A DNA stretch of 64,000 nt from Dehalococcoidia bacterium. GTDB lineage: Bacteria > Chloroflexota > Dehalococcoidia > Lucifugimonadales > UBA3495. How positions within the stretch are numbered: position 1 is the stretch's first letter; every line of letters begins with the position of its first letter. Position numbers and translations under genes: made by a program. Below are positions 5,252 through 50,801 of the stretch, piece after piece. The stretch is from the NCBI GenBank assembly GCA_965203985.1, contig CBDBDS010000002.1, positions 612,809 through 676,808 on the forward strand. Direction: 5' to 3'. A model generated the notes under the pieces. The model saw only the letters and a program-made list of their open reading frames with translations, made no database searches and was not told the origin of the DNA.

Positions 5252-5298
5252 CCATCAGGTCACCGGCATATCGTGATCCGCGCAGCAGGATAGAGGAC

Positions 5299-7743: not shown

Positions 7744-7795
7744 ACCAAGGAGCCATTCGTTGGAATCGTCCGGCGCCCATGAGTTCGGGGATGCT

Positions 7796-8485
7796 TAGAA
7801 CCCCTAACAGAAAGAGGTCAAGCGTCGGAAGCAGATGATTGAGCAGCCCAGGGACAGGAAAGCTTCATGGATGTCGGCGCGGCGCTCGTAGCGCACCCGC
7901 AGCCGGCGGAACTGGTGCAGCCAACCCAGGGGCCGCTCGACCACCCAGCGATGCACTCCCAGCCCGCTGCCGTGTTCCGCGCCCCGTCCACCCAAATCTC
8001 CATATCAAGCAGGGGCAGCAACTGGATTACGCCGTGGCGATTGGCCCCGGTCAGGATGGCCGACCGCGGCGTTCCATTGGCTTCGGTGAGCACGTGATGC
8101 TTGCTTCCGGGCTTGCCCGGGTCCGTAGGATTGGGGCCGGTCTTTTTCCCCGCCGCCCACGGCCCGCACCGACGCGCTGTCCGCGCAAGCCCGCGATCAG
8201 TCCCGACCTTCTGCTCCGCGCAACCGGGACAATAGCGTTTCATGAAGCTTTGCCCACACTCCCGCCTGCTGCCAATCCCGCAACCGGCGCCAGCAGGTCA
8301 TGCCGGAACCGCATCCCATCTCCCGGGGCAGCATCTCCCAGTTCGTCGCTGGCCAAAGGTTCCGCCATCGAACACGACCTCCCACTTCCGTGTAATACTG
8401 TGCCAGCCCACCGCAACGGAATGAACTTGCCGAAAGATCAGCCGCCTGATTATGGATCAGCAAGCCATTTTGTTGGGGTTCTAAA
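7796..8485 (-). mobile_element. Internally deleted, frameshifted IS5-family insertion sequence
   Basis: Terminal inverted repeats: TTAGAACCCCTAACAGAAAG (7796-7815) versus the reverse complement of 8466-8485, TTTAGAACCCCAACAAAATG. The transposase is spread over three frames. These read '...WEMLPREMGCGSGMTCWRRLRDWQQAGVWAKLHETLL', then '...GKKTGPNPTDPGKPGSKHHVLTEANGTPRSAILTGANRHGVIQLLPLLD', then 'RGAEHGSGLGVHRWVVERPLGWLHQFRRLRVRYERRADIHEAFLSLGCSIICFRRL'. About 50 residues that normally lie between 'LLPLLD' and 'GTEHGSGLG' are absent. Confidence 0.75.
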
Positions 8486-8500
8486 CAGGAGAGTTTTCCC

Positions 8501-9004
8501 ATGGGAATCCTCAATTTGCTGGTAGCTCGTGGGGTCGATGCTACTGGCCTCCACGGCAGCGAGGAAGTCTTGGTCCGGGCCGCTCCGGAACAAGTTTATG
8601 AATTGCTGTGCGACGTGACGAAAATGGGAGAATGGAGCCCGGAGTGCTTTCGATGCGAATGGCTGGGTGATGCAGTCAGCGCGCGCCCGGGCGCGCGCTT
8701 CCGGGGACATAACCGACGAGGATGGATGAGGTGGTCTACCGAGTGTACGATAACCCATTACGAACCGTATGCAGTATTCGGATTCGAAACCAAGCCGCCC
8801 GTGGGTAAAGTGCAAAGCCGTTGGCGATTTGACCTTGAACCTGACGCGGATGGCACCATTCTGCGGGAATCGTTCGAAGTATTGTGGTACCCCCGTCCCG
8901 TGTTTGGCCTCGTTTTTGGCGGGCAGTCAAACCGACTTGCCCAGCTACGCGAGGGCGTGATCCAGACTCTGCTACGGATCAAACGCGCCGCCGAGGCGGC
9001 GTGA
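8501..9004 (+). CDS. SRPBCC (START/polyketide-cyclase-like) family protein
   Basis: 167 aa. 'APEQVYELLCDVTKMGEWSPEC...' is the typical SRPBCC opening. A CAGGAGAG RBS sits at 8487-8494. The IS right end lies 16 bp upstream of the ATG. Confidence 0.8.
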   Translation: MGILNLLVARGVDATGLHGSEEVLVRAAPEQVYELLCDVTKMGEWSPECFRCEWLGDAVSARPGARFRGHNRRGWMRWSTECTITHYEPYAVFGFETKPPVGKVQSRWRFDLEPDADGTILRESFEVLWYPRPVFGLVFGGQSNRLAQLREGVIQTLLRIKRAAEAA

Positions 9005-9173
9005 CCCCGCCATCCCGGGCGGTTCCCGACCGGTTGCGTCCGTTGCGTCCATGCACAAGACGCCAGGACTGCGGAGACGTCCCTGCTGTTCATCACGGAC
9101 GGTGCCGGGGCTCGGCCCGTTCACTTGACGGGAAAGCGCCTGACACCGTCCGACGATCACAAGAGCAGGTTTT

Positions 9174-35810: not shown

Positions 35811-37730
35811 ATGAAACGACGCCGCAAAACGACCCCGACTACGCTGATCCTGGTCGCTATTTCGCTCACGCTGACGTTCGTCATCGCCTGCGGTGGAGCC
35901 GCAACCGCTCCCGCACCCGAATCGGACGCGTCCTCGGCCCCCTCCAGCGCGGCCGCAGGAGCGCAGACAGCGCCCACGGCCGCGCCTTCCGGCGGTTCAT
36001 CCCAGGCCGCCCAACCCACCGCTGCCGCCGCGCCGGCCCAGCCCGCAGCGTCTTCCGGCAGCTCAGCCGCTGTAGCCCAACCGACGCCCACGGTCCAGCC
36101 GGTGGAGGTCCAGGCGCCCGAAACCGACTGGGTCACTCGCGGCAAGCACGGGCGGACCATGAAGTGGGTGGCTCGCAACAACCCCGGCTTCTGGGACGTT
36201 CACTATGGCGCGAGCCTGACCACGACGCTCACGCCTTCCGGCGTCAGGTTCAACCAGCTGGTGGAGTACAACCCGGTGAACCCTGAAGAGATCATCGGGG
36301 ACCTGGCCGAAAGCTGGGACGTCAGCGAGGACGGCACGGTGTACACCTTCTACCTGGCCGAAGCGAACTGGTCTGACGGCCAGCCGGTGAAGGCCAGCGA
36401 CATCGTCTACAGCCTGGACCGCATCACCCTCCCCGACGCGTTCCGCGGCCGCACCAACAGCCTCCGCAACTTCTACGAGCACAAGACCGCAGAGGTGATT
36501 GACGAACGGACGGTGCGGATGCCCATCAAGTTCCCGGCCGCCACCTTCATGGTCAACCTCGCCTCCGACTACATGAAGATGTATCCGGAGCACGTTGCCG
36601 GCCCCCTGAGCCAGGAGGACGTCAACTGCTGTCCCGAGAACATGATCGGGTCCGGCCCCTTCATCTACAAGGACGGCAGTTGGCAGAAGCAGGAGTCCTA
36701 CGAATACGTCAGGAACGACGACTACTTCAAGGCTCCCCGCCCGTACTTTGACGGGTTCAAGGTCTTCCTGATCCAGGACGTGGCCCGTTCCATCGCCACC
36801 CTGAAGGTCGGTCAGGCCGACGGCACTTACTATCCGGTGCTCTCAACCTACACCGAATTCGTCGAACAGCTGGAGCATGACACCGACGGCCGCATGCGGG
36901 CGCTTTTCATGGAAAACGTGCAGCGCGCCGGCCTCAACTTCAACTGGCTGGTCGAACCTTATGACGACCCCAGGGTGCGCACCGCCCTCTGGATGGTCAT
37001 CGACCAGGAAGAGATCGTTGAGAAGATCCTGCGCGGCAACGGCACCGTGGGCACGCACTTCCACGTCGGGTTTGCCCCCAACGAGAGTGTCGAGGCGCTC
37101 TACGAGTTGCCCGGCTACCGCCGGGACGCTGACGGCACCAAGGCCCAGGCCGACCTGGATGAGGCCCGACGCTTGCTCGCCGAAGCCGGCTATCCCGACG
37201 GCTTCAGCGGAACCATCACCTCCATCCTGACGGGCTGCACCGCTACCTCCGCCCAGTTGGTCAGCGACATCTGGAAGCGCGAGCTCGGCCTGGACATGAC
37301 CATCGAGTCCAGCGACGTGGCGACCCTGTACGCCAAGTGGCGCAGCAACGACTATGGCGTGATCGTCGGCTGCGGCAGCGGCATCATCCTGCCGGACCCG
37401 TCCGACATCCTGAACCAGTGGTACGGCATCGACACCATGCGCAACTCCGGAAACTGGACCACCACCGAGTTTGAACGGCTCAAGGCCGAGCAGGCGAAGG
37501 AACTGGATCCGGAAAAGCGCAAGGAACTCTTTGCACAGATGGTTGAGCTCCTGCGGGCCGAGGTGCCTCACTACCTGCCCACCGGCTGGATGCACGCTGG
37601 AGGCACCCTGGACTACCGGATCCGCAACTACCACGTCCCCAGGACCATCCAGATGATCCACAAGCTGGACCACATGTGGTGGGACGAGGATGCGGAGAAG
37701 CCTCCCATCGGCACCGGCTACCAGCCGTAG
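35811..37730 (+). CDS. ABC transporter substrate-binding lipoprotein, family 5 (peptide/nickel type), module 1
   Basis: Signal peptide + lipobox 'TFVIAC', then a ~70-aa Ala/Pro/Ser tether, then a family-5 SBP body. About two-thirds identical by eye to the 39997 gene over long blocks ('PGFWDVHYG','NQLVEYNPV','IIGDLAE.W.VS.DGT','LASDYMKMYP'). Confidence 0.9.
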   Translation: MKRRRKTTPTTLILVAISLTLTFVIACGGAATAPAPESDASSAPSSAAAGAQTAPTAAPSGGSSQAAQPTAAAAPAQPAASSGSSAAVAQPTPTVQPVEVQAPETDWVTRGKHGRTMKWVARNNPGFWDVHYGASLTTTLTPSGVRFNQLVEYNPVNPEEIIGDLAESWDVSEDGTVYTFYLAEANWSDGQPVKASDIVYSLDRITLPDAFRGRTNSLRNFYEHKTAEVIDERTVRMPIKFPAATFMVNLASDYMKMYPEHVAGPLSQEDVNCCPENMIGSGPFIYKDGSWQKQESYEYVRNDDYFKAPRPYFDGFKVFLIQDVARSIATLKVGQADGTYYPVLSTYTEFVEQLEHDTDGRMRALFMENVQRAGLNFNWLVEPYDDPRVRTALWMVIDQEEIVEKILRGNGTVGTHFHVGFAPNESVEALYELPGYRRDADGTKAQADLDEARRLLAEAGYPDGFSGTITSILTGCTATSAQLVSDIWKRELGLDMTIESSDVATLYAKWRSNDYGVIVGCGSGIILPDPSDILNQWYGIDTMRNSGNWTTTEFERLKAEQAKELDPEKRKELFAQMVELLRAEVPHYLPTGWMHAGGTLDYRIRNYHVPRTIQMIHKLDHMWWDEDAEKPPIGTGYQP

Positions 37731-37794
37731 GAGAGACCAGGCTTCTGCTATTTACGGAGGAACTTGACGATCGCCAGGCCCGATCCCGGGAGGC

Positions 37795-38763
37795 ATGATG
37801 ACCACCTATATCGTGAGGAGGCTGCTCCTCTTCATACCCACCATCCTCATCGTGACCATCATCATCTTCCTGTTGATGTGGATTGTGCCTGGCGACACGG
37901 CCATGCTCATCCTCACCGGGAACGACCCGAATGAGGGTGGGCGGGTCAGCCTGGAGGACGTCGAACGGCTGCGCGCTAAGCTGGGCCTGGACCGACCGGT
38001 CCACATCCAGTATGCAGACTGGCTATGGGACATGCTCCGCGGCGACTTGGGAGAGTCTTTGTGGTACCAGACCCCGGTGATTGACGAGCTTGGCGGACGG
38101 TTCGTCACCACGGTCCAACTGGCCGTGATGGGCATGGGGATGGCTTTCATCATCGCTGTTCCCCTGGGCATCATTTCGGCAGTCAAGCAGGACACCAAGC
38201 TGGACTACGTCAGTCGGCTGATAGCCCTGCTGGGCATCGCCATGCCCACCTTCCTGATCGCGATCGTCGTAACCTACGTCCTGGCCTACGTATTCGACTG
38301 GTTACCGCCGTTGGACTACGCCAACCTGTGGGAGCAGCCGTTGACCAACCTGCAGCAGATGGTGTTCCCTGCGTTGGCCATCGCATTCCATGATCTTGCG
38401 TTCACCGCTCGGGTCACCCGCTCGTCCATGCTTGAAACGATGCGAGACGACTACGTTCGCACGGCTCGCGCCAAAGGGCTGACGGAGATGGGCGTAATCG
38501 GTCGGCACGCCCTGAAAAACGCCCTGTTGCCGATCATCACGGTCTCGGGCTACCAGTTCGGCAGGTTGCTGGGCGGCGTCGTGATCGTCGAGGTGATCTT
38601 CCTGGTTCCCGGTATAGGGAACATGCTGATCGACGCAATCCTGCATCGTGACTTCGTCGTGATCCAGGCGGTGGTGGTGCTGGTGGCCGCGGTGGTCATG
38701 TTCCTGAACCTGGTCATCGACCTTATCTACGGGATACTCGACCCACGGATCCGCTACCAGTAG
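37795..38763 (+). CDS. ABC transporter permease (DppB/OppB-like), module 1
   Basis: 'YIVRRLLLFIPTILIVTIIIF' opening and an EAA-loop region 'YVRTARAKGL'. 322 aa. Confidence 0.9.
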   Translation: MMTTYIVRRLLLFIPTILIVTIIIFLLMWIVPGDTAMLILTGNDPNEGGRVSLEDVERLRAKLGLDRPVHIQYADWLWDMLRGDLGESLWYQTPVIDELGGRFVTTVQLAVMGMGMAFIIAVPLGIISAVKQDTKLDYVSRLIALLGIAMPTFLIAIVVTYVLAYVFDWLPPLDYANLWEQPLTNLQQMVFPALAIAFHDLAFTARVTRSSMLETMRDDYVRTARAKGLTEMGVIGRHALKNALLPIITVSGYQFGRLLGGVVIVEVIFLVPGIGNMLIDAILHRDFVVIQAVVVLVAAVVMFLNLVIDLIYGILDPRIRYQ

Positions 38764-38790
38764 CGCACCGAATCTCAATGGAGCAGATCA

Positions 38791-39702
38791 ATGGCTACTA
38801 GCGACCTCGCCGCAGAACGCGGCTCTCCAGTTCGCAATGCGCTCCTGGCAATTCCCGCCGCGTACCACTCGACGGTGGAGATCGCTCGCCGGAAACCACT
38901 CGGTGCGGTCGGCGGCGTCACTGCCCTCATCCTGATTATTGTCGCCATTGCATCCCGGTTGGCCATCCTGCCGGTCCCGGACCCCTACGCCTCTGTGGGC
39001 GACATTTTCCTCGCGCCCAGCCGCGAATTCCCCATGGGGACGGACGTCATCGGCAGGGACATCCTCGCCCGTGTCCTGCACGGCACCTGGATATCCTTGT
39101 ACGTCGGTCTGGGCAGCGTCCTGATCGGCATAACCGCCGGCTTCGTGCTGGGCATCACCAGCACCTACGCGGGCGGCTTCGTTGACCTGGCGTTCCAGCG
39201 GGTGGTGGACGCCCTGATGTCGATCCCCGGCCTGATCCTGGCCTTGGCCATCATGGCCGTGCTGGGTTCCTCCTTGAACAACGTCATCCTGGCCATCGTC
39301 ATCGGTATGCTGGCCCCGGTGATCCGCACCGTGCGTTCCCAGGTGCTCACGCTCAAGGAAATGGACTACGTGACCGCCGCCAGAGCCATCGGTGCGCGCC
39401 CCCAGCGCATCGTATTCCGTCACATCATGCCCAACTGCCTGGCCATCTATATCATCATGGCGACCTACTACCTGGGGTTCGCCATCATCATCGAGGCCTC
39501 GCTGAGCTTCCTGGGCGTGGGCGCGCCGCCCGACGAGCCCAGCTGGGGCGGCATCCTTACGGTCGCCAGCCGGGAAACCCCGGAGACGGGCATCTGGCTG
39601 CTGGTCTTCCCCGGCATCTTCATATTCATCGCCGTGCTGGCCTTCAACGTGCTGGGCGACGCCCTGCGGGATGTGCTGGACCCGAGGCTTCGCGGCCGCT
39701 AG
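38791..39702 (+). CDS. ABC transporter permease (DppC/OppC-like), module 1
   Basis: 'GTDVIGRDILARVLHG', 'DYVTAARAIGA' and the C-terminal 'LGDALRDVLDPRLRG'. 303 aa. Confidence 0.9.
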   Translation: MATSDLAAERGSPVRNALLAIPAAYHSTVEIARRKPLGAVGGVTALILIIVAIASRLAILPVPDPYASVGDIFLAPSREFPMGTDVIGRDILARVLHGTWISLYVGLGSVLIGITAGFVLGITSTYAGGFVDLAFQRVVDALMSIPGLILALAIMAVLGSSLNNVILAIVIGMLAPVIRTVRSQVLTLKEMDYVTAARAIGARPQRIVFRHIMPNCLAIYIIMATYYLGFAIIIEASLSFLGVGAPPDEPSWGGILTVASRETPETGIWLLVFPGIFIFIAVLAFNVLGDALRDVLDPRLRGR

Positions 39703-39744
39703 CCGCCCACTGGAAACAGCCCGGAATCGTCCCAGCTGGGAGTG

Positions 39745-39783
39745 AGCCGCCCCGACGCATCGCTTGCGTCGGGGCGGCTTTTT
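39745..39783 (+). terminator. Strong rho-independent terminator ending ABC module 1
   Basis: 15-bp perfect stem AGCCGCCCCGACGCA / TGCGTCGGGGCGGCT with a 5-nt loop, then TTTTT. It lies inside the spurious N-terminal extension of the tracked ORF 39742. Confidence 0.85.
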
Positions 39784-39867
39784 GATCCCTCATCGGTACG
39801 ATGTTGTGATCTTTCAAGGAGCCCTCATAACCGATGTTTATCCCGCCACGGTATCGACAATTACCAT

Positions 39868-39896
39868 TTGACAAGCGGCAACCTTGTGAGTAGCAT
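39868..39896 (+). promoter_or_regulatory. Candidate sigma70-type promoter for ABC module 2
   Basis: TTGACA (39868-39873), 17 nt spacer, TAGCAT (39891-39896). About 100 nt upstream of the ATG at 39997. Confidence 0.4.
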
Positions 39897-39996
39897 CCCC
39901 CAACACTGGCCGGCCCAGTCTAGCCAGCGATACCAGGCGGCTGACGCTTGTCCGTTTGCCCGCTTTCCAATTGAATTGCATCGGGAGGGTTCGCCA

Positions 39997-41847
39997 ATGA
40001 AGTTCCGACGAATCGGGAGACCCCAATGGTTGTTGCTCGTGAGCTGCGCAGCCCTGTTGGTAGTCGGGCTGGCCTGCGGTGGAACCACCGCGCCCGAGCC
40101 CAGCACCGCCCCCAGCCAGCCGGCACAGTCTCAACCGGCGGCCTCTGATAGTTCGGCCCCGGCTGCCCCAACCCCGACGTTCACCCCCATGCCAACACGG
40201 GTTCTTGATGCAACGCCAACCGCTATCCCGGTCCCGACACCGGTAGCCATCGACGAACGCCCGGACTGGTGGCAAGAAGGCGAAGGCAAGCATTACCGTG
40301 GCACGTTCCCTATGGTCGGCAACAGCAACCCGGGGTTCTGGGACGTCCACTACGGTGGTTCTCTCAACACCACCCTGATGCCCTCCAGCCCGCGCTTCAA
40401 CCAACTGGTCGAGTACAACCCGGTCAAGCCCAGCGAAATCATCGGTGACCTGGCCGAAACTTGGGAAGTCAGCGACGACGGCACCGAGTTCGTCTTCCAC
40501 CTGAAGGACGCCACTTGGTCGGACGGCATGCCGGTGACCGCGGAGGACGTGGTGTTCAGCCTTGACCGCATCACCCTGCCGGGAGCCCAGCGGGCGCGCA
40601 CCGGATTCCTGCGGGCATTCTACGAGCACCAGACCGCCGAGGTGATCGACGGCAAGACAGTGCGCGTGCCCCTGAAGTACCAGGCTCCCACCTTCATGCC
40701 AAACCTGGCGTCGGACTACATGAAGATGTACCCCAAGCACATCGCCGAAGATCTGACCCAGGAGCAGGCCAACCAGCCCGAAAACCTGATCGGCTCCGGC
40801 CCGTGGCTGCTGGAAGGTTGGCAGAAGGACGTGAGCTACACGTTCGCGCGGAACGAGACGTACTTCAAAGAGGGGCGCCCCTTCTTCGATGGCATCATCG
40901 TCCACCTGATCCCTGATACGGCCCGCCGCATTGCGGCCCTTCAGGCCGGTCAGGTGCTGGGAACCTTCAACCCCTTCACCGGCGTCAACCGCCCCGAAGC
41001 CATGGCGGTACTGGAAGAGGAGACCGACGGCCAGGTGCGAGCCCTGATCCTTCCCAGCGCCGGTTTCGAGGCATACTTCCTCAATAACGCCAAACCCCCG
41101 TTCGACGATGAAAGGGTCCGCCGGGCCTTCTACCTGGGTCTGGATCGAGACCTGGGCATCGAGCGCGCGGTCAGGGGCTTCGGTCAGCCCGGGACATTCT
41201 TCTCCCCGGGAGTGGTCGAGGACCTGGCCGACCTGCGCGCCAACAACCCCGCTTTTGCGGAAGATCGCTCCGCGGCGATTGCGGAGGCCAAGCAGTTGCT
41301 GACTGAGGCCGGTTACCCCGAAGGCATTTCGGTGAAGATGAACACCCGAAACGCCATTCCAACATTGCCGGCAGCGGAAGTCGCGGGTGAGCAACTGCGT
41401 CGGGACGTTGGCATCGACATCGAGATCGTACCCAACGACCTGGCTACCACCTACGCCGTGATGCGTGACGGAACCCACGAAATCTCCACCGTCGGCACCG
41501 GCATCATCCTGACCGACCCCGCGGACATCCTCAACCAGTTCTACCTGCAGGACGTGCTCCGCAACCCTCAGAACTGGCAGAACGACCGCGTTGACGAACT
41601 GATCGACCTCCAGAACCGGGCCATCGACCAGCGCGAGCGTCAGGGTCACCTGGAGGAAATTGCCGACATCCTGCACACCGGAAGCAGCCACCTGGTGGTG
41701 TATTTCTGGGGAGGAGCCGGCGGTGCGCTGGATTACCGCATCCGGAACTTCCACCTGCCGCCCACCGTCCAGCAGATCCACAAGTGGGACCACGTCTGGT
41801 TCGATCCGGACCGTGAACAGCCCGCCGAAACCGGCTATCAGCCGTAA
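39997..41847 (+). CDS. ABC transporter substrate-binding lipoprotein, family 5, module 2
   Basis: Trimmed to 'MKFRRIGRPQWLLLVSCAALLVVGLACGG' (GGGAGGG RBS, lipobox 'GLAC'). It has an Ala/Pro/Ser/Thr tether and is paralogous to 35811..37730. Confidence 0.9.
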   Translation: MKFRRIGRPQWLLLVSCAALLVVGLACGGTTAPEPSTAPSQPAQSQPAASDSSAPAAPTPTFTPMPTRVLDATPTAIPVPTPVAIDERPDWWQEGEGKHYRGTFPMVGNSNPGFWDVHYGGSLNTTLMPSSPRFNQLVEYNPVKPSEIIGDLAETWEVSDDGTEFVFHLKDATWSDGMPVTAEDVVFSLDRITLPGAQRARTGFLRAFYEHQTAEVIDGKTVRVPLKYQAPTFMPNLASDYMKMYPKHIAEDLTQEQANQPENLIGSGPWLLEGWQKDVSYTFARNETYFKEGRPFFDGIIVHLIPDTARRIAALQAGQVLGTFNPFTGVNRPEAMAVLEEETDGQVRALILPSAGFEAYFLNNAKPPFDDERVRRAFYLGLDRDLGIERAVRGFGQPGTFFSPGVVEDLADLRANNPAFAEDRSAAIAEAKQLLTEAGYPEGISVKMNTRNAIPTLPAAEVAGEQLRRDVGIDIEIVPNDLATTYAVMRDGTHEISTVGTGIILTDPADILNQFYLQDVLRNPQNWQNDRVDELIDLQNRAIDQRERQGHLEEIADILHTGSSHLVVYFWGGAGGALDYRIRNFHLPPTVQQIHKWDHVWFDPDREQPAETGYQP

Positions 41848-41859
41848 TCTTCGATGAGA

Positions 41860-41887
41860 GATGCGCCCCGAGTACAAGGGGCGCATC
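41860..41887 (+). other. Intra-operon hairpin after the binding-protein gene
   Basis: 10-bp perfect stem GATGCGCCCC / GGGGCGCATC with an 8-nt loop and no T-run. The position (between the SBP and permease genes) is typical of partial attenuators or mRNA-stability elements. Confidence 0.45.
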
Positions 41888-41932
41888 GTCCAATACCTGT
41901 GCGCTCGGTGCCTCACAGACTGAAGGTGGAAG

Positions 41933-42895
41933 GTGTACGCATACATCGCCCGTAGGGGCTTGCTGTTCATACCCACTATCCTGCTCGCCACCATCCTGGT
42001 GTTTGGCCTCTTCTGGATCGTACCGGGCGACGCCGCCATGATGATCCTGACGGGTGAAGAGGGCGACGGCGGCAAGGTCACCGAAGAGGACATCAAACGC
42101 GTTCAGCGGGAACTGGGCCTCGACCGCCCCGTTTACATCCAGTACGGCGACTGGCTTTGGAAAATTCTCCAGGGCGACTTCGGCGATTCGGTATGGTATG
42201 GGACCCCGGTCCTGGATGACCTGAAGGATCGCTTCTTCATCACCCTTGAACTGGCGGTGCTGGCAATAGTGCTGGCCTTCATCGCCGCCGTGCCTTTAGG
42301 AGTGCTGTCCGCGGTCAAGCAGGATTCATTCCTGGACCACATCAGCCGGCTCCTGGCGCTGGTGGGCATAGCTCTGCCCACCTTCTGGCTGGGCATCCTG
42401 GTGATCTATGGCCTGACCTATTTCGCCGGCTGGTTGCCACCGTTGGGTTACGCCACCCTGTGGGGCGACCCCTTTACCAACCTGCAACAGCTGATTTTCC
42501 CCGCCCTCGTGCTGGCTTTCCACGATATGGCCTTCACGGCACGGGTGGCGCGGTCGGCCATGCTGGAGGTGATGCGGGAAGACTACATGAGAACCGCCCG
42601 GTCCAAGGGTCTCAACGAATGGATGGTAGTGGGCCGACACGCATTGAAAAACGCCTTGCTGCCCGTTATCACCGTCTCAGGCTACCAATTCGGCCGGCTA
42701 TTGGGCGGCACCATCATCATCGAATCCATCTTCGTCATACCCGGTGTGGGCCGGTACCTCATCGACGCCATTATCCACCGCGACTTCGTCGTGGTTCAGG
42801 GCGTTGTCCTGCTGGCCGCCGCCGTCGTGCTGTTTTTGAACCTGATCATCGACATCCTGTACGGAATATTGGACCCCAGGATCAGGTACTCGTAG
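41933..42895 (+). CDS. ABC transporter permease (DppB-like), module 2
   Basis: GTG start. 'YIARRGLLFIPTILLATILVF' and 'YMRTARSKGL'. Colinear with 37795..38763. Confidence 0.9.
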   Translation: MYAYIARRGLLFIPTILLATILVFGLFWIVPGDAAMMILTGEEGDGGKVTEEDIKRVQRELGLDRPVYIQYGDWLWKILQGDFGDSVWYGTPVLDDLKDRFFITLELAVLAIVLAFIAAVPLGVLSAVKQDSFLDHISRLLALVGIALPTFWLGILVIYGLTYFAGWLPPLGYATLWGDPFTNLQQLIFPALVLAFHDMAFTARVARSAMLEVMREDYMRTARSKGLNEWMVVGRHALKNALLPVITVSGYQFGRLLGGTIIIESIFVIPGVGRYLIDAIIHRDFVVVQGVVLLAAAVVLFLNLIIDILYGILDPRIRYS

Positions 42896-42947
42896 GTTGC
42901 GGGCGCACTGGGATATCCTGTGCTCAATGGCCGTTGTTCCGTGAGGA

Positions 42948-43889
42948 GTGTTCGGACTCATGGCGAATCAAACCAATCAGCGCGCCGAGGTAGCCGCCCC
43001 ACAGCGAGCGGGGATGTTGCCGCCGGCCGCAGCGGTGGTCCGGGAGGTTAACCGCTTCACGCGCCGCAAGCCCCTGGGGGCCATCGGCGGCCTCCTGGTG
43101 CTGGTGCTCGTGATCGTTGCGCTTATGGCGCCGGTTCTTGCCCCCTACGGCGCTCGAGAACTGCCCGACAGTCGCGAGGGCGGTTCAACCGTGTACATCC
43201 CGCCTAATTCGCAATTCCTTCTGGGAACCGACCACGTGGGTCGCGACGTTCTCAGCCGATTGATCTACGGCGCACGGATCAGCCTGTACGTCGGTCTCGG
43301 CAGCGTGCTGATAGGCATCACGGCCAGCTTCATCATCGGCGTCGCCCTGGCCTACGCCGGGGGCATCATCGACATGTCGGCGCAAAGGGTCGTGGACGCG
43401 CTGATGGCGTTGCCCGGCCTCATCATCGCGCTGGCAATCGTGGCAGTGCTGGGCTCGTCTTTGAACAACGTGATCCTTGCCATCGTCATCGGCATGATCG
43501 CACCGGTGATCCGCACCGTAAGATCACAGGTCCTGTCAATCAAGGAACTGGACTACGTGACGGCGGCGCAGGCCATCGGGGCACCGCCGTGGCGCATCGT
43601 GTTCCGTCACATCGTGCCCAACTGCTTCGCCATCTACCTGGTGCTGGCCACCTACTACCTGGGCTTTGCCATCATCATCGAGGCGTCCCTGTCCTTCCTG
43701 GGCGTGGGCGCCCCGCCCGACCAGCCCAGCTGGGGAGGGATGCTCACCCGAGCCGCGCAGGAACACGTGTTGACCGCTCCCTGGGTCGGCGTTTTCCCGG
43801 GCGTGGCAATCTTCGTGGTGGTCATGGGTTTCAACATCCTGGGCGATGCCCTGCGCGACGTCCTTGACCCTCGCCTGCGCGGAAGGTAG
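42948..43889 (+). CDS. ABC transporter permease (DppC-like), module 2
   Basis: 'GTDHVGRDVLSRLIYG', 'DYVTAAQAIGA' and the C-terminal 'LGDALRDVLDPRLRG'. Colinear with 38791..39702. Confidence 0.9.
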   Translation: MFGLMANQTNQRAEVAAPQRAGMLPPAAAVVREVNRFTRRKPLGAIGGLLVLVLVIVALMAPVLAPYGARELPDSREGGSTVYIPPNSQFLLGTDHVGRDVLSRLIYGARISLYVGLGSVLIGITASFIIGVALAYAGGIIDMSAQRVVDALMALPGLIIALAIVAVLGSSLNNVILAIVIGMIAPVIRTVRSQVLSIKELDYVTAAQAIGAPPWRIVFRHIVPNCFAIYLVLATYYLGFAIIIEASLSFLGVGAPPDQPSWGGMLTRAAQEHVLTAPWVGVFPGVAIFVVVMGFNILGDALRDVLDPRLRGR

Positions 43890-43891
43890 CG

Positions 43892-45298
43892 TTGCCAACC
43901 AACACAGCATCACTCTTGCGATCAAACCCTGCCGGCCGACTGTTTGCGTTGGCCGGCATATTCTTGTTGACCCTGGCCGTCGCTGCCTGCGCTCCATCTG
44001 ACGACGCATCGAGCAGCGAACCCTGGGCGGCTCCCCTCGCTCCTACAACCGAGGCGTTCCCAACTCTGGAACCCGCCGCCGATCTGCCCACGGCAGCCCT
44101 CGCCGACGCCGCCACGCCATTGCCGACGGCTGCGATGGCTGACGTGGCGACCGCTCTCCCCACCGTGGCACCGCTGATGTCCTCCCCCGAAAGCATGGTG
44201 CAAACCGTTCCCGACGCCGCGGCTGAGGAGGCGCGCACGAAATACCAACGCCTGCTGCGCGCCCAGTGGGACACCGACTTCACGCGGACGACAATCTCTT
44301 TCGACGAGATCATGACCGGCGGACCGCCCAAGGACGGCATCCCGTCAATCGACGACCCGCAGTTCGAGTCGATAACCGATGCCGACCTCTGGCTTGACGA
44401 TCTTGAGCCCGTGCAGGTGGTGGACCTCAACGGCGACGTTCGCGCGTACCCCGTGCAGGTGATGGTATGGCACGAACTGGTCAACGACACCGTGGGCGGA
44501 GAACCGGTGGTCATCACCTTTTGACCGCTCTGCAATACCGCCTTCGTGTACAGGCGGACGCTCGACGACCAGACCCTCGATTTCGGGACCACCGGCGCGC
44601 TGCGCGACAGCAACCTGCTGATGTACGACCGCCAGACCGAGACGTGGTGGCAGGAAGTGGGCGGCGAGGGCGTCATCGGCCACTTCGCCGGTCGCAAGCT
44701 GGAACAACTCTACCTGTCAATCGTGTCGTGGGCAGACTTCAAAGCGGCTCACCCCGACGGCCGGGTGCTTTCGCGGCCCGATTCCGGTCGTGCCTACGGA
44801 CAGAACCCATACGCCGGCTACGACCGGCCGGGCAGCGAACCGTTCCTGTTCGAGGGCGAAAAAGACCCCCGGTTGCCGGCCGTGGAGCGGGTGGTGGCCG
44901 TGGAACGCGGCAACGATGCCTGGGCCGTGTCATTCACCACGCTGGCCGAGGAGCGGGTGGTCACCGCATCGGTAGCCGGCGAGGACATCGTGGTGTTCTG
45001 GTCGCCGGGAACCGCGTCCGCGCTGGACTCCGGATCCATCGCCAGGGGACGGGACGTAGGCACCGCCGGCATCTTTTCCCCGCGAGGCCCCGACGGCAAC
45101 GCGCTGACCTTCGCGCCGGACGCCGAAGGCCGCATCATCGACGAACAGACCGGGAGCCAATGGGACATATTCGGACGCGCCATCCACGGGCCGCTGCAAG
45201 GCGAGCAACTGACCCCGGTGCCGGGTCGCATCGGCCAGCTGTGGTTCTCGTGGGCGGTGTACCGGCCGGATACCGTCGTGTATCCCGCCACGAGCTGA
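43892..45298 (+). CDS. DUF3179-family lipoprotein with one in-frame TGA (44522-44524) at the conserved CPLC cysteine: candidate selenoprotein (otherwise a nonsense-disrupted gene)
   Basis: The tracked ORFs 43892..44524 and 44546..45298 share one frame and are separated only by the TGA. Joined, they read 'DGIPSIDDPQF...AYPVQVMVWHELVNDTVGGEPVVITF[TGA]PLCNTAFVYRR...SNLLMYDRQTETWWQ', colinear with DUF3179 as I remember it. Lipobox 'LAVAAC'. The start is 3 nt after the permease stop. Confidence 0.7.
44538..44557 (+). other. SECIS-like hairpin downstream of the DUF3179 TGA
   Basis: CCGCCT-TCGTGTAC-AGGCGG: a 6-bp perfect stem with an 8-nt loop containing GU. The stem starts 13 nt after the TGA. Confidence 0.4.
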
Positions 45299-45308
45299 GC
45301 GACCCTGC

Positions 45309-46157
45309 ATGCCCGTGCTTAAAGTAGTGATCGTCACCGCCTTAGCTGCATTAGCGGTCCTTACGCTGACCCTGTCGGCTTGTGGTCAGACGACCGGCGA
45401 CCCATCTGAGAACGGTGCCCAGGCCGCAACACCCAACATTGGGGCAACCGTGCAGGCTGCACTGCGTTCATTGGAAAACACCCAGCTTCCGACCGTTGCC
45501 CAGAGCGCCGATCCAACCACTGCACCCGTGCAGCCTGCGACGCCTGCCACCGTCCCGAATGCCGTCTCGTCTTCCAGCCCGCCGTCGGACGCAACCCACA
45601 CGCCAACCCCTCGACTGGCCGCCACGGCTACGGCAATGTCCTCGCCCACGTCGCCGCCAACGGTGGAGGTCACGCCGACCGCCGAGATCGTCCGGTCAAC
45701 GGCAGTACTCCCAACCGCGACCCCTGAAGGAGCCGGTCAGCGGGCACCAGCGCCGATGTTCGCGGGGACCTTCATGGACGGCAACGATTATCAGCTCGAT
45801 GACACCGTCGGCACCCCGACGTTGTTGATGTTCTGGGCTCCCTGGTGACCCCATTGCCAGCGGCAGTTGCCGTCTGTACAGGGTTTCCACGAGGACTACA
45901 ACGGAGTCGACGCCGACATAGTGGGGATCGCAATAAGCGCGCCCGAACCGGAAGTCCGCGCGCTGATAGAGAAGCAGGGTCTGACCTTTCCCGTCGCCTA
46001 TGACCCGGCTGGACAACTCTCGAGCGTGTATGGCGTCTCCGGCGTGCCTTTCTACATCTTCATCGACAAGGCCGGTCGTATCGCCCACACCATTCCAGGC
46101 GCCCCGAACGACGTAAACACGATCAAAAACTGGATCGAGGACCTGCAGGCGGAATAG
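45309..46157 (+). CDS. TlpA/ResA-like thioredoxin-fold lipoprotein with an in-frame TGA (45846-45848) at the first Cys of the CxxC motif: candidate selenoprotein
   Basis: The tracked ORFs 45309..45848 and 45867..46157 share one frame. Joined, they read 'GTPTLLMFWAPW[TGA]PHCQRQLPSV...GLTFPVAYDPAGQLSSVYGVSGVPFYIFIDKAGRI', the classic 'FWA.WC.PC' redoxin layout. Lipobox 'LSAC' plus a long Pro/Thr/Ala tether. Confidence 0.75.
45860..45873 (+). other. SECIS-like hairpin downstream of the thioredoxin TGA
   Basis: GCGGC-AGTT-GCCGT: 5 pairs including a terminal G-U, with loop AGUU. It is extendable by A-T and C-G pairs across a bulged C (45858-45876). The stem starts exactly 11 nt after the TGA. Confidence 0.4.
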
Positions 46158-46200
46158 CGCACCGTTGGCCGCATGATCCGGGCACTGGATGAATCAGAGA

Positions 46201-46226
46201 GCCCCACGGAAATCACGACGTGGGGC
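46201..46226 (+). terminator. Hairpin terminator ending the ABC-module-2 / DUF3179 / thioredoxin unit
   Basis: 8-bp perfect stem GCCCCACG / CGTGGGGC with a 10-nt loop, followed by TCTCTC. Confidence 0.55.
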
Positions 46227-46237
46227 TCTCTCACGCG

Positions 46238-46358
46238 TACCCAGTTTCACACGAACTGTCATTGCGAGCGCAGCGCGGCAATCTCGTCAGGGCAACGAAC
46301 GCCGCCACGGGAACGGGATCGGCACGTCGCTGCGCTCCTCGTGATGACCAACTGGGTA
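46238..46358. repeat. Full-length family A element with outer TIRs
   Basis: TACCCAGTT (46238-46246) ... GTCATTGCGAGCGCAGCGCGGCAATCTCG ... CGTCGCTGCGCTCCTCGTGATGAC ... AACTGGGTA (46350-46358). The same AACTGGGTA end also closes the tandem array at ~13967. Confidence 0.85.
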
Positions 46359-46401
46359 GGCGTGAGGTGGGGCTCCATCTATCGCCGGATGCCTACGCAG
46401 G

Positions 46402-47478
46402 CTATCCTCGCCAGATCCGACGCATCCGGCGCACCGAGTCCAGCCGGGACTCCGCCAGGATGTCCGCCGCCCGCGCGGTGGATATCTCCTGCTTGCGGGA
46501 CGTGGTCAGCACTTCGGACATCTGCTCGTAGATCCGCTCCGTTTGCTGACGCGAGCGGTCCGGGTTGTACGGCTGGCCGATCTCGGCCGCGGCGTTGATG
46601 ATGCCGCCGGCGTTGATCAGGAAATCGGGCGCATAGACGATTCCCCGGCGATGCAGTTCCTCGCCATCCTCGGCGGTCATCAGCTGGTTGTTGGCGCCGC
46701 CGGCCACGATGCCGCAACGCAGGCGATCAATGGTGGCCGAGTTGATGACACCGCCCAGCGCGCACGGAGCGAAGATGTCGCACTGAGCATCGTAGATCTC
46801 GTCGGGCCCGACCACCTTGACGCCCATCTGGCGCGCCCGATCCAGGGCCATCTCGTTGACGTCGGTGGCGATGATGCGGACGTCGTCCTCCAGCAGATGA
46901 CCCGCCGTGTGCGTGGCCACCTTGCCGAACCCCTGCATGGCGACGGTGCGGCCGCGCAGATTGTCCGTGCCCCAGACGTCGGCGGCGCAGGCCCTCATTC
47001 CCATGTAAATCCCCAGGCCGGTCATGACCGACGTGTCCCCGCTGCCGCCCAGGGTCACGTCGAGGCCCACCACGTGTTCCGTTTCCTGGCGCACGGCCTC
47101 CAGGTCTCGCCCGGTGGTTCCCACGTCGGTGGTGGTGAGGTAGCGACCGCCCAGCGTATCAACGAACCGGCCCCAGGCCCGCAGCAGCGACTCCGTTTTG
47201 TCAGTGCGGGGATCGCCGATGATGACGCCTTTCCCTCCGCCAAGGTGCAAGCCGGCCGCCGCCGATTTGTAGGTCATGGCCCTGGAGAGGTTCAGCGCGT
47301 CCGTGAGGGCTTCCTGTTCGGTGGCGTAGGGCCACATCCGGGTCCCGCCACAGGACGGCCCCAGGGTGGTGTCGTGGATGGCGATGATGCCTCGCAGACC
47401 GGACTCGGGGTCGCTGTACATCGTCACCTGCTCATGCCCGCGATTGACCATCGTATTCAGTACGTCCATTGCTTCCAC
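46402..47478 (-). CDS. Glu/Leu/Phe/Val dehydrogenase family, leucine/valine-dehydrogenase size class
   Basis: 358 aa. 'LHLGGGKGVIIGDP' holds the catalytic Lys in a GGGK context. 'GRTVAMQGFGKVATH' is the Rossmann motif. Confidence 0.85.
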   Translation of the reverse strand: MEAMDVLNTMVNRGHEQVTMYSDPESGLRGIIAIHDTTLGPSCGGTRMWPYATEQEALTDALNLSRAMTYKSAAAGLHLGGGKGVIIGDPRTDKTESLLRAWGRFVDTLGGRYLTTTDVGTTGRDLEAVRQETEHVVGLDVTLGGSGDTSVMTGLGIYMGMRACAADVWGTDNLRGRTVAMQGFGKVATHTAGHLLEDDVRIIATDVNEMALDRARQMGVKVVGPDEIYDAQCDIFAPCALGGVINSATIDRLRCGIVAGGANNQLMTAEDGEELHRRGIVYAPDFLINAGGIINAAAEIGQPYNPDRSRQQTERIYEQMSEVLTTSRKQEISTARAADILAESRLDSVRRMRRIWRG

Positions 47479-47869: not shown

Positions 47870-50197
47870 ATGGCCCAGCCATCGCATAACACCCTCGTTC
47901 TGCCCGTCGCCGGGATGACGTGCGCGGCATGTGTCTATCATGTCGGTGAAGCCCTGCGGTCCGTGGACGGCGTGGCCGAGGTCAGCGTCAACTTGGCGAC
48001 CGAGCGGGCAACCATCAGCATGGGCAACGCCGATGGCGGCGCATCTCCCGACCTGGATACGCTGGCCAAGGCCGTTGCTGACGCCGGATACCGTCTGGAT
48101 ACCAACCCCCAGGTGGACGAAAGCGCTGGCGGTCGCGGCGCCGGGCCTCGGGAGCAAGAGGAGAAACGCCTCAGGGTCCGGCTTATCGTAGCAGCGGTAG
48201 GCGGAGGCGCGCTGCTGCTGGGAAGTTTCCCGGCGCTGCCGTGGACGCCCGATTTGTTGGCGATGTGGTGGTACCCGCTGCTGTTGTGGGCGGTGGCGAC
48301 CCCGGTGCAACTGTGGGCCGGATGGTCGTTCTACACCGCCGGGTGGGCCGGAATCCGGCGCTTGCAGCCCAACATGCACACGCTGATCGGCCTGGGCACG
48401 TCGGTGGCCTATGGCTACAGCGTGGCAGTCGTGCTGATGACCCTGCTCGCTCCCGGCGCATTGACTGCACCTGGAGCGCATCAGCTGCACTTCGACATGG
48501 CAGCCATAATCGTCGCGCTGATCCTGCTGGGACGCTGGCTGGAGGCCCGCGCCCTGTCCCGCACGTCCGGTGCAATCGAACGGCTGCTGGACCTGCGGCC
48601 CCAGACGGCCCACCTCATGGCTGCGGACGGCTCCATATCTGATGTGCCGGTAGAAAACGTTGCAACCGGAGACACCCTGGCCGTCCGCCCGGGCGAGCAA
48701 ATCCCGGTCGATGGCGAAGTGACCAGCGGGACCAGCGCAGTGGATCAATCCGCGCTGACCGGCGAGAGTATGCCAGCCGATAAATCTGCCGGCGATTCCG
48801 TGTTCGCCGGCACCCTGAACGGAACCGGCGCGATTCTCATGCGGGCCACCCGTGTCGGCACGGATACGACGCTGGCCCAGGTGATACGCCTGGTGGAAGA
48901 GGCCCAGGGCTCGGCGGCCCCGGTGCAGCGACTGGCCGATCGCGTCGCCGCCTGGTTTGTGCCGGCGGTGGGTCTGATTGCACTGGCCGCGGCGATACTG
49001 TGGCTGTTCCTGGGGCCGGACCCGTCGGTGCGGTACGCAATGCTGACCCTGGTTGCGGTTTTCATCATCGCGTGCCCGTGCGCGTTGGGTCTGGCAACTC
49101 CCACCGCCATCATCGTTGGAGTGGGCCGAAGCGCGGAGCGCGGCATCCTGATCCGGAGCGCCGCCGCCCTGGAAACCGCTCATCGCGTGGACGTCGTTGC
49201 CCTGGACAAGACCGGCACCCTGACCACGGGGCAACCGGAGGTCACCGACATTGTGCCGGCGCCGGGTGTTCGCGCAACCGATGTGCTGCGTTACGCGGCA
49301 TCGGTCGAAACCCTGTCGGAACACCCCCTTGGTCAGGCGGTGCTGCGTCGGGCTCAAGTCGACGGTTTGACAGTCGCCCCGTCCACGGATTTCATTGCCC
49401 ACGCCGGCGCGGGCGTGACCGCAGTAGTCGCCGAACAAGGGGTGGCGGTCGGCAACGCCTCACTCATGCAACAGGTCGGCGCGTCGCCGGACGCCGAGCT
49501 TGTCGCGGCAGCGACACAACTCGCTGAAGGCGGATCTACCCCCATGTTCGTGGCCCGAGGCGCGCGTGTTGTCGGCGTGATCGCCGTTGCCGACCGGGTG
49601 AAGCCCGGGACGCCTGCAGCGGTGGCGGCCCTGCATCAAATGGGGGTGCGGACGGTGATGCTCTCCGGCGACCGCCCGGAGGTGGCGGCGTCCGTGGCAT
49701 CGGCGTGCGGCATCGACGAGTACCATGCCGGAATGTTGCCGGCCGACAAGGCGGATGCCATCGCCAGGATGCAGGAGGAAGGGCATACCGTGGCAATGGT
49801 GGGCGACGGCATCAATGACGCGCCGGCGTTGGCTCGGGCCAACGTCGGGGTGGCCATGGGCGGCGGGACTGACATCGCCCGGGAAACCGCGGACGTCACG
49901 CTGATGCGTGACGATCTCATAGGCGTTGCCACCGCGCTGAGAATGTCCCGATCCACGATGCGGACCATCCGGCAGAACCTGTTCTGGGCCTTCTTCTACA
50001 ACACGCTGCTGATCCCGGTGGCCGCGGGGGCGCTGTATCCGGTGTTCATCGCGCTGGGCGGCGTACCGGCCGGGCTGGTGTTTTTCTTCGGCGATGCCGG
50101 GTTCCTGAACCCCATCCTGGCGGCGCTGGCCATGGCCTTCAGCTCAGTCAGCGTGGTCAGCAACTCCCTGCGGCTGCGGAGGGTGTCGATTCGGTAA
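47870..50197 (+). CDS. copA: Copper-translocating P1B-type ATPase
   Basis: N-terminal HMA domain 'GMTCAACVYHV', TM6 'CPC' ('IIACPCALGLATP'), 'DKTGTLT' and 'GDGINDAPAL'. 775 aa. A TGCTACAAT extended -10-like motif lies at ~47810-47818. Confidence 0.92.
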   Translation: MAQPSHNTLVLPVAGMTCAACVYHVGEALRSVDGVAEVSVNLATERATISMGNADGGASPDLDTLAKAVADAGYRLDTNPQVDESAGGRGAGPREQEEKRLRVRLIVAAVGGGALLLGSFPALPWTPDLLAMWWYPLLLWAVATPVQLWAGWSFYTAGWAGIRRLQPNMHTLIGLGTSVAYGYSVAVVLMTLLAPGALTAPGAHQLHFDMAAIIVALILLGRWLEARALSRTSGAIERLLDLRPQTAHLMAADGSISDVPVENVATGDTLAVRPGEQIPVDGEVTSGTSAVDQSALTGESMPADKSAGDSVFAGTLNGTGAILMRATRVGTDTTLAQVIRLVEEAQGSAAPVQRLADRVAAWFVPAVGLIALAAAILWLFLGPDPSVRYAMLTLVAVFIIACPCALGLATPTAIIVGVGRSAERGILIRSAAALETAHRVDVVALDKTGTLTTGQPEVTDIVPAPGVRATDVLRYAASVETLSEHPLGQAVLRRAQVDGLTVAPSTDFIAHAGAGVTAVVAEQGVAVGNASLMQQVGASPDAELVAAATQLAEGGSTPMFVARGARVVGVIAVADRVKPGTPAAVAALHQMGVRTVMLSGDRPEVAASVASACGIDEYHAGMLPADKADAIARMQEEGHTVAMVGDGINDAPALARANVGVAMGGGTDIARETADVTLMRDDLIGVATALRMSRSTMRTIRQNLFWAFFYNTLLIPVAAGALYPVFIALGGVPAGLVFFFGDAGFLNPILAALAMAFSSVSVVSNSLRLRRVSIR

Positions 50198-50221
50198 CAT
50201 CCCATTTTGCACGGGTTTTTA

Positions 50222-50293
50222 CATGGATGCACAGGATAGGCACGATGGTACTGGTCGGAGGCTCTCTAGATTCCGGCTTTCGCGGGAATGACG
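50222..50293. repeat. Family C copy plus family B copy downstream of copA
   Basis: CATGGATGCACAGGATAGG (50222-50240) and GATTCCGGCTTTCGCGGGAATGACG (50269-50293). Confidence 0.8.
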
Positions 50294-50389
50294 AAAACCC
50301 AACCACGCTAAAATCGCGACATTATTGCGCTTATCTGTAAAGCGTTGCAAACTGATACAATGTGCTTGAAAGCCCGCTGATAGCGGCAT

Positions 50390-50530
50390 ATGGAGCGCAT
50401 CATGGAAATTGAATTGCTGCGTGGATTGTTGATAGCTTGGCTGGTGAGCAACATCGTGTTGTTAGCCGCACTAATTTTTTTTGGATGCTATACGGGCATT
50501 TTCCCGATTTTCTATCGCGATGGGAAATAA
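50390..50530 (+). CDS. Possible 46-aa hydrophobic micro-protein (below the ORF-track cutoff)
   Basis: My own translation: 'MERIMEIELLRGLLIAWLVSNIVLLAALIFFGCYTGIFPIFYRDGK*'. One clear TM span. It lies in a low-GC patch between copA and the YHS gene. No other support. Confidence 0.3.
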   Translation: MERIMEIELLRGLLIAWLVSNIVLLAALIFFGCYTGIFPIFYRDGK

Positions 50531-50567
50531 TTCCGATCATGGAAAACTCCAGTGGAGATGGCAAGCC

Positions 50568-50801
50568 ATGGCAACCGCAACCGACCCCATTTGCCTGATG
50601 CAGGTAGATACCGACAATCCCAACGGCGGAACCAGCGAGCACGCCGGGCAGACCTACTACTTCTGCGCCCCGGGGTGCCGCATCGCCTTCGAGCGCGACC
50701 CGGAAGGGTGGGCCTCCGGTCGCAACAAACCCATCGCCATGGAGGAGCCGCAACCGCAGCCGGTCACGTTCGTACGCCGGCTGTTCCGTCGCGGACAATA
50801 G
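50568..50801 (+). CDS. YHS/TRASH-type metal-binding domain protein
   Basis: Trimmed to 'MATATDPICLMQVDTDNP....HAGQTYYFCAPGCRIAFERDP', the DP.CGM....YYFCS..C...F pattern of YHS domains. Adjacent to copA. Confidence 0.8.
   Translation: MATATDPICLMQVDTDNPNGGTSEHAGQTYYFCAPGCRIAFERDPEGWASGRNKPIAMEEPQPQPVTFVRRLFRRGQ

Follow-up and report, generated by a model that had tools for sequence, protein, structure and literature searches.

The two open reading frames (ORFs) at 45309-45848 and 45867-46157 of the window, by which we mean the entire stretch of 64,000 nucleotides (nt) of contig CBDBDS010000002.1 from a Dehalococcoidia bacterium, are, as judged from sequence, one real selenoprotein gene and not two. 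The gene encodes a predicted thioredoxin-fold lipoprotein of the TlpA/ResA type (hereafter the TlpA-like gene), in which a TGA triplet would be read as selenocysteine (Sec, U), and it directly follows a second TGA-containing gene, encoding a DUF3179 lipoprotein. The explanation that best accounts for all observations together, and that we consider highly probable on sequence evidence, is a Sec-containing, membrane-anchored TlpA/ResA-like oxidoreductase, with its UGA decoded by SelB and a downstream hairpin and with the DUF3179 protein as partner. An original prediction, made from the DNA alone, had joined the two ORFs across a TGA at the nucleophilic cysteine (Cys) of a thioredoxin CxxC motif. 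Both parts of this proposal are borne out: the ORFs share a frame whose sole interruption is the TGA at 45846-45848 (codon 180), and alignments to ResA and to Cys-form homologues place this codon at the first Cys of the motif. The joined product reads GTPTLLMFWAPW before and PHCQRQLPSVQGF after the TGA, with the active site FWAPW-U-PHC. Moreover, every sequence-level prediction of the Sec interpretation that was tested (TGA conservation, selection, and hairpin) held.

Orthologous DNA was collected from six Dehalococcoidia/SAR202 genomes (four at chromosome level), from SAR202 bin87 of the sponge Aplysina aerophoba (MPNC01000002.1, orthologue L002), and from ENA, Tara, and Logan contigs. Complete chromosomes with the TlpA-like gene are OY760687.1, OX638345.1, OZ220731.1, and OZ253486.1, and a metagenome scan contributed one extra orthologue and two distant Cys-form loci. 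In the TGA-aware homology search that the original prediction had proposed as a check, the TGA occupies the catalytic site in 11 of the 12 Dehalococcoidia/SAR202 orthologues, which come from assemblies of different projects and methods. Of 16 related sequences, drawn from independently made short-read, hybrid, and long-read assemblies, 15 have it, and such conservation is beyond chance. The matches listed in a protein search include about ten proteins of 96 amino acids (aa) that are 72-99% identical to the C-terminal half, and about eleven N-terminal fragments, all terminating in FWAPW; thus the same split recurs in many independent assemblies. When the C-terminal part was used in an exhaustive HMMER search, more fragments emerged, of approximately 91-108 aa and 39-55% identity, beginning at or near the same position. 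These distant homologues have the TGA at the same codon in all five contigs fetched, in unrelated genomic contexts and within the motifs FWAPW-U-GYC, FWEPW-U-PHC, FFAPW-U-PHC (twice), and FWAPW-U-PHC. The entries found in protein collections show the TlpA-like gene as proteins of 179 and 96 aa and the DUF3179 gene as C-terminal fragments of about 250 aa, an annotation error that is corrected here.

Both halves of the gene are maintained as protein. The ratio of nonsynonymous to synonymous substitution rates (dN/dS; Nei-Gojobori, all pairs) is 0.12 over the 30 codons before the TGA and 0.16 over the 102 codons after it, at a mean dS of about 0.7. All differences at codons +1 to +4 (P H C Q) are synonymous (CCC/CCG/CCA, CAT/CAC, TGC/TGT, and CAG/CAA), which indicates that the ribosome reads in frame through the TGA. 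The triplet is not reassigned in this organism, since TGA is the ordinary stop codon of the DUF3179 and SecA genes of the window and also terminates the orthologous TlpA-like gene in loci L006 and L019. The splitting of the gene by gene callers in every public record could also reflect a pseudogene or a sequencing or assembly error, that is, a premature stop or a miscalled TGC/TGT in a gene that is dead or mis-assembled. This is extremely improbable in view of the recurrence of the TGA in independent assemblies and the purifying selection on both sides of it; in addition, the catalytic domain is free of any other frameshift or stop in every orthologue, so that the pseudogene decay against which the original prediction had cautioned is not seen.

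The original prediction had also allowed for separate expression of the halves, as a lipoprotein of 179 aa ending at the TGA and a protein of 96 aa starting from TTG 45867. UGA termination competes with Sec insertion in known systems, so that part of the product is likely to be the truncated form of 179 aa, above all when selenium is limiting. Nevertheless, there is very little chance that two products are the function of this locus. The six codons from the TGA to the TTG (PHCQRQ) are conserved as protein, with the synonymous-only variation of the first four, and hence are translated in frame; the TTG is an internal Leu codon that lies inside the hairpin described below; and a scan of 43700-46500 revealed no promoter-like site. 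Finally, neither half alone would give a thioredoxin fold, as the alignment to ResA shows the break to lie after strand beta1 and before the active-site helix.

The assignment of the joined product to a family is based on searches in which Cys was substituted at the TGA position. Pfam domains then extend across the TGA over residues 143-273, namely AhpC-TSA (6.9e-22), Redoxin (1.1e-21), Thioredoxin_8, Thioredoxin, and Thioredoxin_2, with bit scores of 78 for PF00578, 78 for PF08534, and 47 for PF13905. The nearest solved relatives by sequence are ResA (4nmu, 3c71), StoA (3erw, E 4e-15), and DsbE/DsbF-type proteins. The alignment to ResA 4nmu is ungapped over 119 residues (E 2e-17) and includes the cis-Pro region GVSGVPFY; in both ResA structures the first Cys of CxxC falls on the TGA position. 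The same Cys aligns with the TGA in the Cys-form homologues P0016, P0023, P0034, and P0037, with the motifs WCPHC, WCPPC, and ECSDC, and also in P0070 and P0077; the closest Cys-form relative is about 42% identical. With the thioredoxin fold, W-C-x-x-C with U for the first C, the cis-Pro, and an N-terminal anchor, the predicted protein belongs to the TlpA-like/ResA-like extracytoplasmic thioredoxin family. The anchor had been described in the original prediction as an LSAC lipobox followed by a Pro/Thr/Ala tether of about 130 aa; the lipobox, at Cys25, and the composition of the tether stand, and its length is corrected to 122 aa. The lipobox, defined by pattern, is kept in 13 of 13 relatives with a complete N-terminus, and such sequence patterns suggest lipid anchoring and an outward-facing location. 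The otherwise low-complexity tether contains a motif, PNIGATVQAALRSLE (45432-45476), of the form P-[ND]-I-[EG]-A-T-V-x-A-A-L-R-S-L-E, which is found in most orthologues and is recognizable in the distant homologues L020 and L024.

Downstream of the UGA lies a candidate Sec insertion sequence (SECIS) hairpin. Its core, GCGGC-AGUU-GCCGU at 45860-45873, starts 11 nt past the UGA, precisely as the original prediction had it, and can be extended with one bulge to a hairpin of 4 + 3 = 7 base pairs (bp) that starts 9 nt past the UGA and has an energy of -8.8 kcal/mol. The AGUU loop starts 16 nt past the UGA, with G and then U at loop positions 2-3. The published bacterial SECIS (bSECIS) model requires a loop of 3-9 nt, no fewer than 4 bp in the upper stem, a G within the first two positions of the loop, with G/U as the usual next base, a distance of 16-37 nt from the UGA to the loop, and a minimum free energy (MFE) of -7.5 kcal/mol or lower (PMC13188914); the extended hairpin satisfies all of these. 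The energy of -8.8 kcal/mol is found in 11 of 12 orthologues. None of the 12 orthologues departs from CGG CAG TTG at codons +5 to +7, which make up the 5' arm and the loop and supply the 3' arm with its first base, although the amino acids Arg and Leu are six-fold degenerate; overall, only 14 of 61 codons for invariant residues are themselves invariant. The covariance check proposed in the original prediction gave a divided answer: pairing is conserved, with 87% of the cells paired in the alignment of 16 sequences versus 22-78% when the partner columns are slid, while covariation is seen at one pair only, A-U to G-C in four sequences. The position of the bulge shifts between sequences (GCCGUCUG, GCCAGCUG, and GCCGGCUG) and the stem is retained. 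In L022, where GRELP replaces the peptide QRQLP, a 6-bp stem closed by the loop AGUUG still occurs at the same distance in a shifted register. An AGUU-loop hairpin was also observed at the same distance from a TGA at the catalytic Cys at L020:3206, L021:282, L022:3020, L023:3980, and L024:198, none of which is beside a DUF3179 gene. Loci L020 and L023 come from one sample (ERZ25069412); therefore, the populations that carry them may have several paralogous Sec TlpA-like genes.

The adjacency to a second TGA-containing gene, already pointed out in the original prediction, is confirmed: the DUF3179 gene matches PF11376 (4.7e-97) across its own TGA at 44522-44524, in the context VVITF-U-PLC, and 10 nt separate its TGA stop from the ATG of the TlpA-like gene. 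Among 147 mechanical candidates from a scan of the window for in-frame TGAs, only these two genes look real. The gene order and the 10-nt spacing are identical in every SAR202 locus, and the internal TGA of the DUF3179 gene is conserved in all orthologues and in more than 70 protein clusters of 250-aa C-terminal fragments. This neighbor resembles the known DUF3179 selenoproteins (UxxC/T) in its PF11376 domain and in having U in the CPLC motif. The hairpin downstream of its TGA, CCGCCU-UCGUGUAC-AGGCGG at 44538-44557, is conserved and has its loop 19 nt past the UGA; in contrast to that of the TlpA-like gene, it fails the published bSECIS rule because there is no G in the first two loop positions.

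The association of the two families is also seen elsewhere. In the JGI entry P0284 (571 aa, 10 member sequences), a lipobox and a DUF3179 domain (with CPLC) are naturally fused to a thioredoxin/Redoxin domain (with CPIC) at the C-terminus, in the same order as the genes of the window; this thioredoxin domain shares 31% identity with the one encoded in the window. Cys-form TlpA-like neighbors of DUF3179 genes, for which the original prediction had suggested looking, were found in the unrelated lineage of L025-L028, where a membrane-anchored Cys-form TlpA-like gene (WCAPC, 4480-5004) overlaps the start of a Cys-form DUF3179 gene (5001-6245) by 4 nt. Thus three independent observations, the conserved operon with two U residues, the fusion, and the overlapping Cys-Cys genes, tie the TlpA-like and DUF3179 proteins together. 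On the opposite strand in L025-L028, within 4 kb, there are a thioredoxin gene and a fusion of glutaredoxin with pyridine-nucleotide-disulfide oxidoreductase, which suggests that this neighborhood is a redox gene cluster.

Several observations weigh against a Sec-decoded gene pair of this kind. One orthologue, at L012:1365-1367 (a short-read Logan contig of 2831 bp, SRR26713616), has TCA (Ser) in place of the TGA and TGC (Cys) in place of TTC five codons upstream, giving CWAPWSPHC; it retains the hairpin, and the adjoining DUF3179 gene retains its own TGA. This is either a real Sec-to-Ser lineage, in which case the site can be lost, or a result of errors in the contig. A decaying or misread gene could likewise be suspected at about position 9627 of L014, a circular long-read assembly of 4.83 Mb (ctg246070_48x_c), where the loss of one base relative to L013 and L015 (CCTGAGGCC to CCTGGGCC) puts the tether out of frame; this reflects either an error of assembly or inactivation at the level of the strain. 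The hairpin is short, is not beyond chance by itself, and taken alone is weak evidence. A model-fitting hairpin follows 22% of the 1744 TGA triplets of the window (63% G+C), and one as stable and as close follows 4% of them. When the peptide is recoded synonymously, the native sequence ranks only in the best 2-10% (p 0.02-0.1), the dinucleotide-shuffle z-score is -2.0, and covariation is limited to the single pair mentioned above. A longer SECIS with a lower stem GACCC/GGGUU, obtained as the single-sequence MFE fold, was dropped since its pairs are lost in the alignment of the orthologues. The case for recoding is built on codon-level conservation and not on the hairpin, which is consistent with it and conserved. 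Pairing of the two genes is not universal: the Sec-form loci L020-L023 and the Cys-form DUF3179 gene L029 are without it. Finally, Pfam, Rfam, and ARAGORN revealed no SelA, SelB, SelD, or tRNA-Sec, either in the 64 kb of the window or in the loci that were fetched.

In particular, Pfam analysis of 48 ORFs of the window revealed no sel gene and no ccdA; Rfam at the gathering threshold and ARAGORN gave no matches in the window, and hence no tRNA-Sec or known RNA family; and in 16 related loci ARAGORN found nothing but a tRNA-Trp. With a genome size of about 4-5 Mb, the absence of sel genes from 64 kb is expected. Most of the Aplysina symbiont bins are reported to contain SelA and SelB together (Slaby et al. 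2017, PMC5649159), and SAR202 bin87, the source of orthologue L002, has three members of COG1921 (SelA) and one of COG3276 (SelB) (Table S4, PMC5649159). Thus SelA and SelB are documented, by a published COG table, for the sister genome bin87. At the level of the phylum, Chloroflexi have an unusual 8/4 tRNA-Sec (PMC5389517), and BSepDB lists Dehalococcoidia metagenome-assembled genomes with 46 and 49 selenoprotein genes (PMC13326102).

The data on the hairpin and the machinery bear directly on the possibility that the UGA is read through with another residue, either by a near-cognate Trp or Cys tRNA or with Cys carried on tRNA(Sec), giving a WxxC or CxxC product. The inserted residue cannot be told by sequence alone, the hairpin is only modestly specific, and the evidence for the machinery comes from a sister genome. 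We nevertheless regard such readthrough as highly unlikely. The recoding affects precisely the redox-active Cys position, as is the case in other UxxC selenoproteins; another gene, 1.3 kb upstream, is arranged alike; SelA and SelB are both present in bin87; and conserved hairpins at a fixed distance are a requirement of SelB-dependent decoding.

Under the Sec interpretation, the following mechanism can be proposed. SelB carrying Sec-tRNA(Sec) would be recruited by the hairpin, and the UGA would be read as Sec and not as a stop. The product is predicted to be exported and lipid-anchored at Cys25, with a flexible P/T/A-rich tether keeping it on the external side of the cytoplasmic membrane. By homology, Sec180 would act as the nucleophile on a substrate disulfide, and Cys183 would resolve the mixed selenylsulfide, so that the enzyme may serve as an extracytoplasmic thiol-disulfide (selenylsulfide) reductase or isomerase. 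The gene context points to the upstream DUF3179 lipoprotein, with its U-P-L-C motif, as the likeliest partner or substrate: the TlpA-like protein would service the DUF3179 active site, and the two would form a two-component extracytoplasmic redox relay. From the same context, a two-selenoprotein relay is probably encoded at the end of an operon for an importer of the Opp/Dpp type of the ATP-binding cassette (ABC) family. A more specific version, in which the UPHC and UPLC proteins form a dedicated relay on the external side of the membrane, genetically tied to the Opp/Dpp-type importer in sponge- and coral-associated SAR202, is tentative and rather doubtful. In that case the thioredoxin-like partner would recycle DUF3179, and DUF3179 would process, ahead of uptake, a substrate that carries a disulfide, selenium, or a metal; if true, this would be the first functional assignment for DUF3179.

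It is unlikely, if not to the same degree as the alternatives weighed above, that the gene encodes a selenoprotein of another function, namely a peroxidase (peroxiredoxin-like or glutathione peroxidase-like) or an enzyme with a substrate other than DUF3179, for instance in the maturation of cytochrome c or the assembly of copper sites. Peroxidases often contain Sec, the top Pfam match is AhpC-TSA, and 1.7-4.6 kb downstream there are genes for a YHS protein and a CopA-type ATPase. On the other hand, the motif W-U-x-x-C follows the thioredoxin pattern and not the peroxiredoxin PxxxTxxC/U (PMC13188914), and the best structural relatives by sequence are reductases of the ResA, StoA, and DsbE type. 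As for other substrates, a role like that of ResA or TlpA is disfavored by NCBIfam scores far under the cut-offs and by the lack of ccdA/resBC or sco genes in the window, while a convergent dehydrogenase gene separates the TlpA-like gene from copA. The pairing, the fusion, and the gene overlap described above favor DUF3179.

The TlpA-like gene shares with ResA, StoA, TlpA, and CcmG (DsbE) the thioredoxin fold, the W-C-x-x-C motif, extracytoplasmic anchoring to membrane or lipid, and an ungapped alignment of about 120 residues, and differs from them in having Sec at the position of the nucleophilic Cys. Nor was a gene context seen that relates to the maturation of cytochrome c, to sporulation, or to Sco/CoxB. 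As candidates for a narrower assignment, ResA proper (NF002854, 80 bits versus a cut-off of 170) and TlpA proper (NF047696, 34 bits versus 230) were rejected, with no ccdA, resBC, or sco found in the window; StoA scores 65 versus 210 and DsbE 36 versus 123. The NCBIfam family NF041054 ("ResA-like WAxxUGC motif-containing protein") has the same ResA-like fold and WAxxU context before Sec. It was also set aside, as the score is 51 bits versus a cut-off of 300, its motif is U-G-C and not U-P-H-C, and its profile of 354 positions is matched over 75-197 only.

The original prediction had noted that thioredoxin-fold UxxC selenoproteins are a known class, and the published tables agree. Predicted prokaryotic selenoprotein families include a TlpA-like family (UxxC) and a "Redoxin family protein" (PF08534; UxxC) (PMC13188914), as well as a "Prx-like thiol:disulfide oxidoreductase" (PF00578; UxxC/UxxU) and DUF3179 (PMC13188914, PMC9312934). 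The TlpA-like gene has the same Pfam domains, Sec position, UxxC motif, and in-frame UGA followed by a hairpin, and by the rule of these reviews (same domain and same Sec motif) it belongs to the listed families; the NCBI name "DUF3179 domain-containing (seleno)protein" is likewise already in use (P0272). The gene is thus a further example of an already cataloged selenoprotein class, and the interest attached to it in the original prediction was overstated. Specific to this case, and unmentioned in the tables of the reviews, with which the comparison was made by tabulated domain and motif, are the lipobox, the long tether, and the fixed DUF3179 neighbor of the SAR202 subgroup. In addition, neither protein nor HMMER searches found a Cys-form relative of this subgroup above approximately 42% identity, so that close Cys-form orthologues are lacking. 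With this gene, the thioredoxin-fold selenoproteins of the UxxC type gain a predicted lipid-anchored member outside the cytoplasm, from a lineage, SAR202/Dehalococcoidia, that recent databases report to be selenoprotein-rich and several members of which come from host-associated samples. A more useful lead comes from the repeated association of DUF3179 with TlpA-like proteins (Sec-Sec operon, Cys-Cys overlap, and fusion), which provides a testable hypothesis for a domain that has no known function and for which no solved structure was found by sequence.

Table. Coordinates of the predicted features of the TlpA-like gene and its surroundings
Feature	Position	Strand	Basis and remarks
Sec TlpA/ResA-like thiol-disulfide oxidoreductase lipoprotein gene, 282 residues (predicted)	45309..46157	+	ATG start, TAG stop, one internal TGA; Pfam across TGA; orthologues alike in architecture
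Lipoprotein signal peptide, residues 1-25, lipobox L-S-A-C, Cys25	45309..45383	+	Pattern match, not trained predictor
Tether, 122 aa, 61% P/T/A/S	45384..45749	+	Tether length in relatives 45 to 124 aa
Thioredoxin-fold (Redoxin/AhpC-TSA/Thioredoxin_8) catalytic domain, residues 143-273	45735..46127	+	Pfam; ungapped alignment to ResA 4nmu
Active site U-P-H-C; predicted Sec codon TGA 45846-45848, resolving Cys codon 45855-45857	45846..45857	+	Alignment to ResA, conservation
Candidate bacterial SECIS hairpin CAGCGGC-AGUU-GCCG(U)CUG	45858..45876	+	Energy, conservation, partial covariation; low specificity
DUF3179 lipoprotein gene, upstream partner	43892..45298	+	PF11376 match across its in-frame TGA
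Perfect 12-bp inverted repeat GAGAGCCCCACG(10 nt)CGTGGGGCTCTC	46197..46230	.	Read from sequence; about 40 nt past the stop of the TlpA-like gene

The TlpA-like gene is the last of a co-directional run. Upstream, at 35811-43889, there are two tandem sets, each consisting of an SBP_bac_5 binding protein and two BPD_transp_1 permeases, with no ABC ATPase gene adjoining them, and the start codon of the DUF3179 gene lies 2 nt past the stop of the last permease gene. A promoter and terminator scan of 43700-46500 found nothing beyond chance inside the operon. The inverted repeat listed in the table lies past the TlpA-like gene, ahead of a convergent Glu/Leu/Phe/Val dehydrogenase gene, and the transcription unit probably ends there; as the repeat has no T run, it went uncalled in the terminator scan.

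Elsewhere in the window, at 3586-11192, several long ORFs (e.g., 9174-11192, 672 aa, minus strand) have no Pfam match at 1e-5 and are either wrong ORF choices in a G+C-rich stretch or uncharacterized genes. Further downstream of the TlpA-like gene, the region 47870-50801 contains a CopA-type heavy-metal P-type ATPase gene (HMA domain, CPC motif) and then a gene for a small YHS-domain protein (50481-50801) in the Cys form. YHS proteins are a cataloged selenoprotein family in other organisms. The CopA and YHS genes are also found downstream, in the same order, in L013 and L014.

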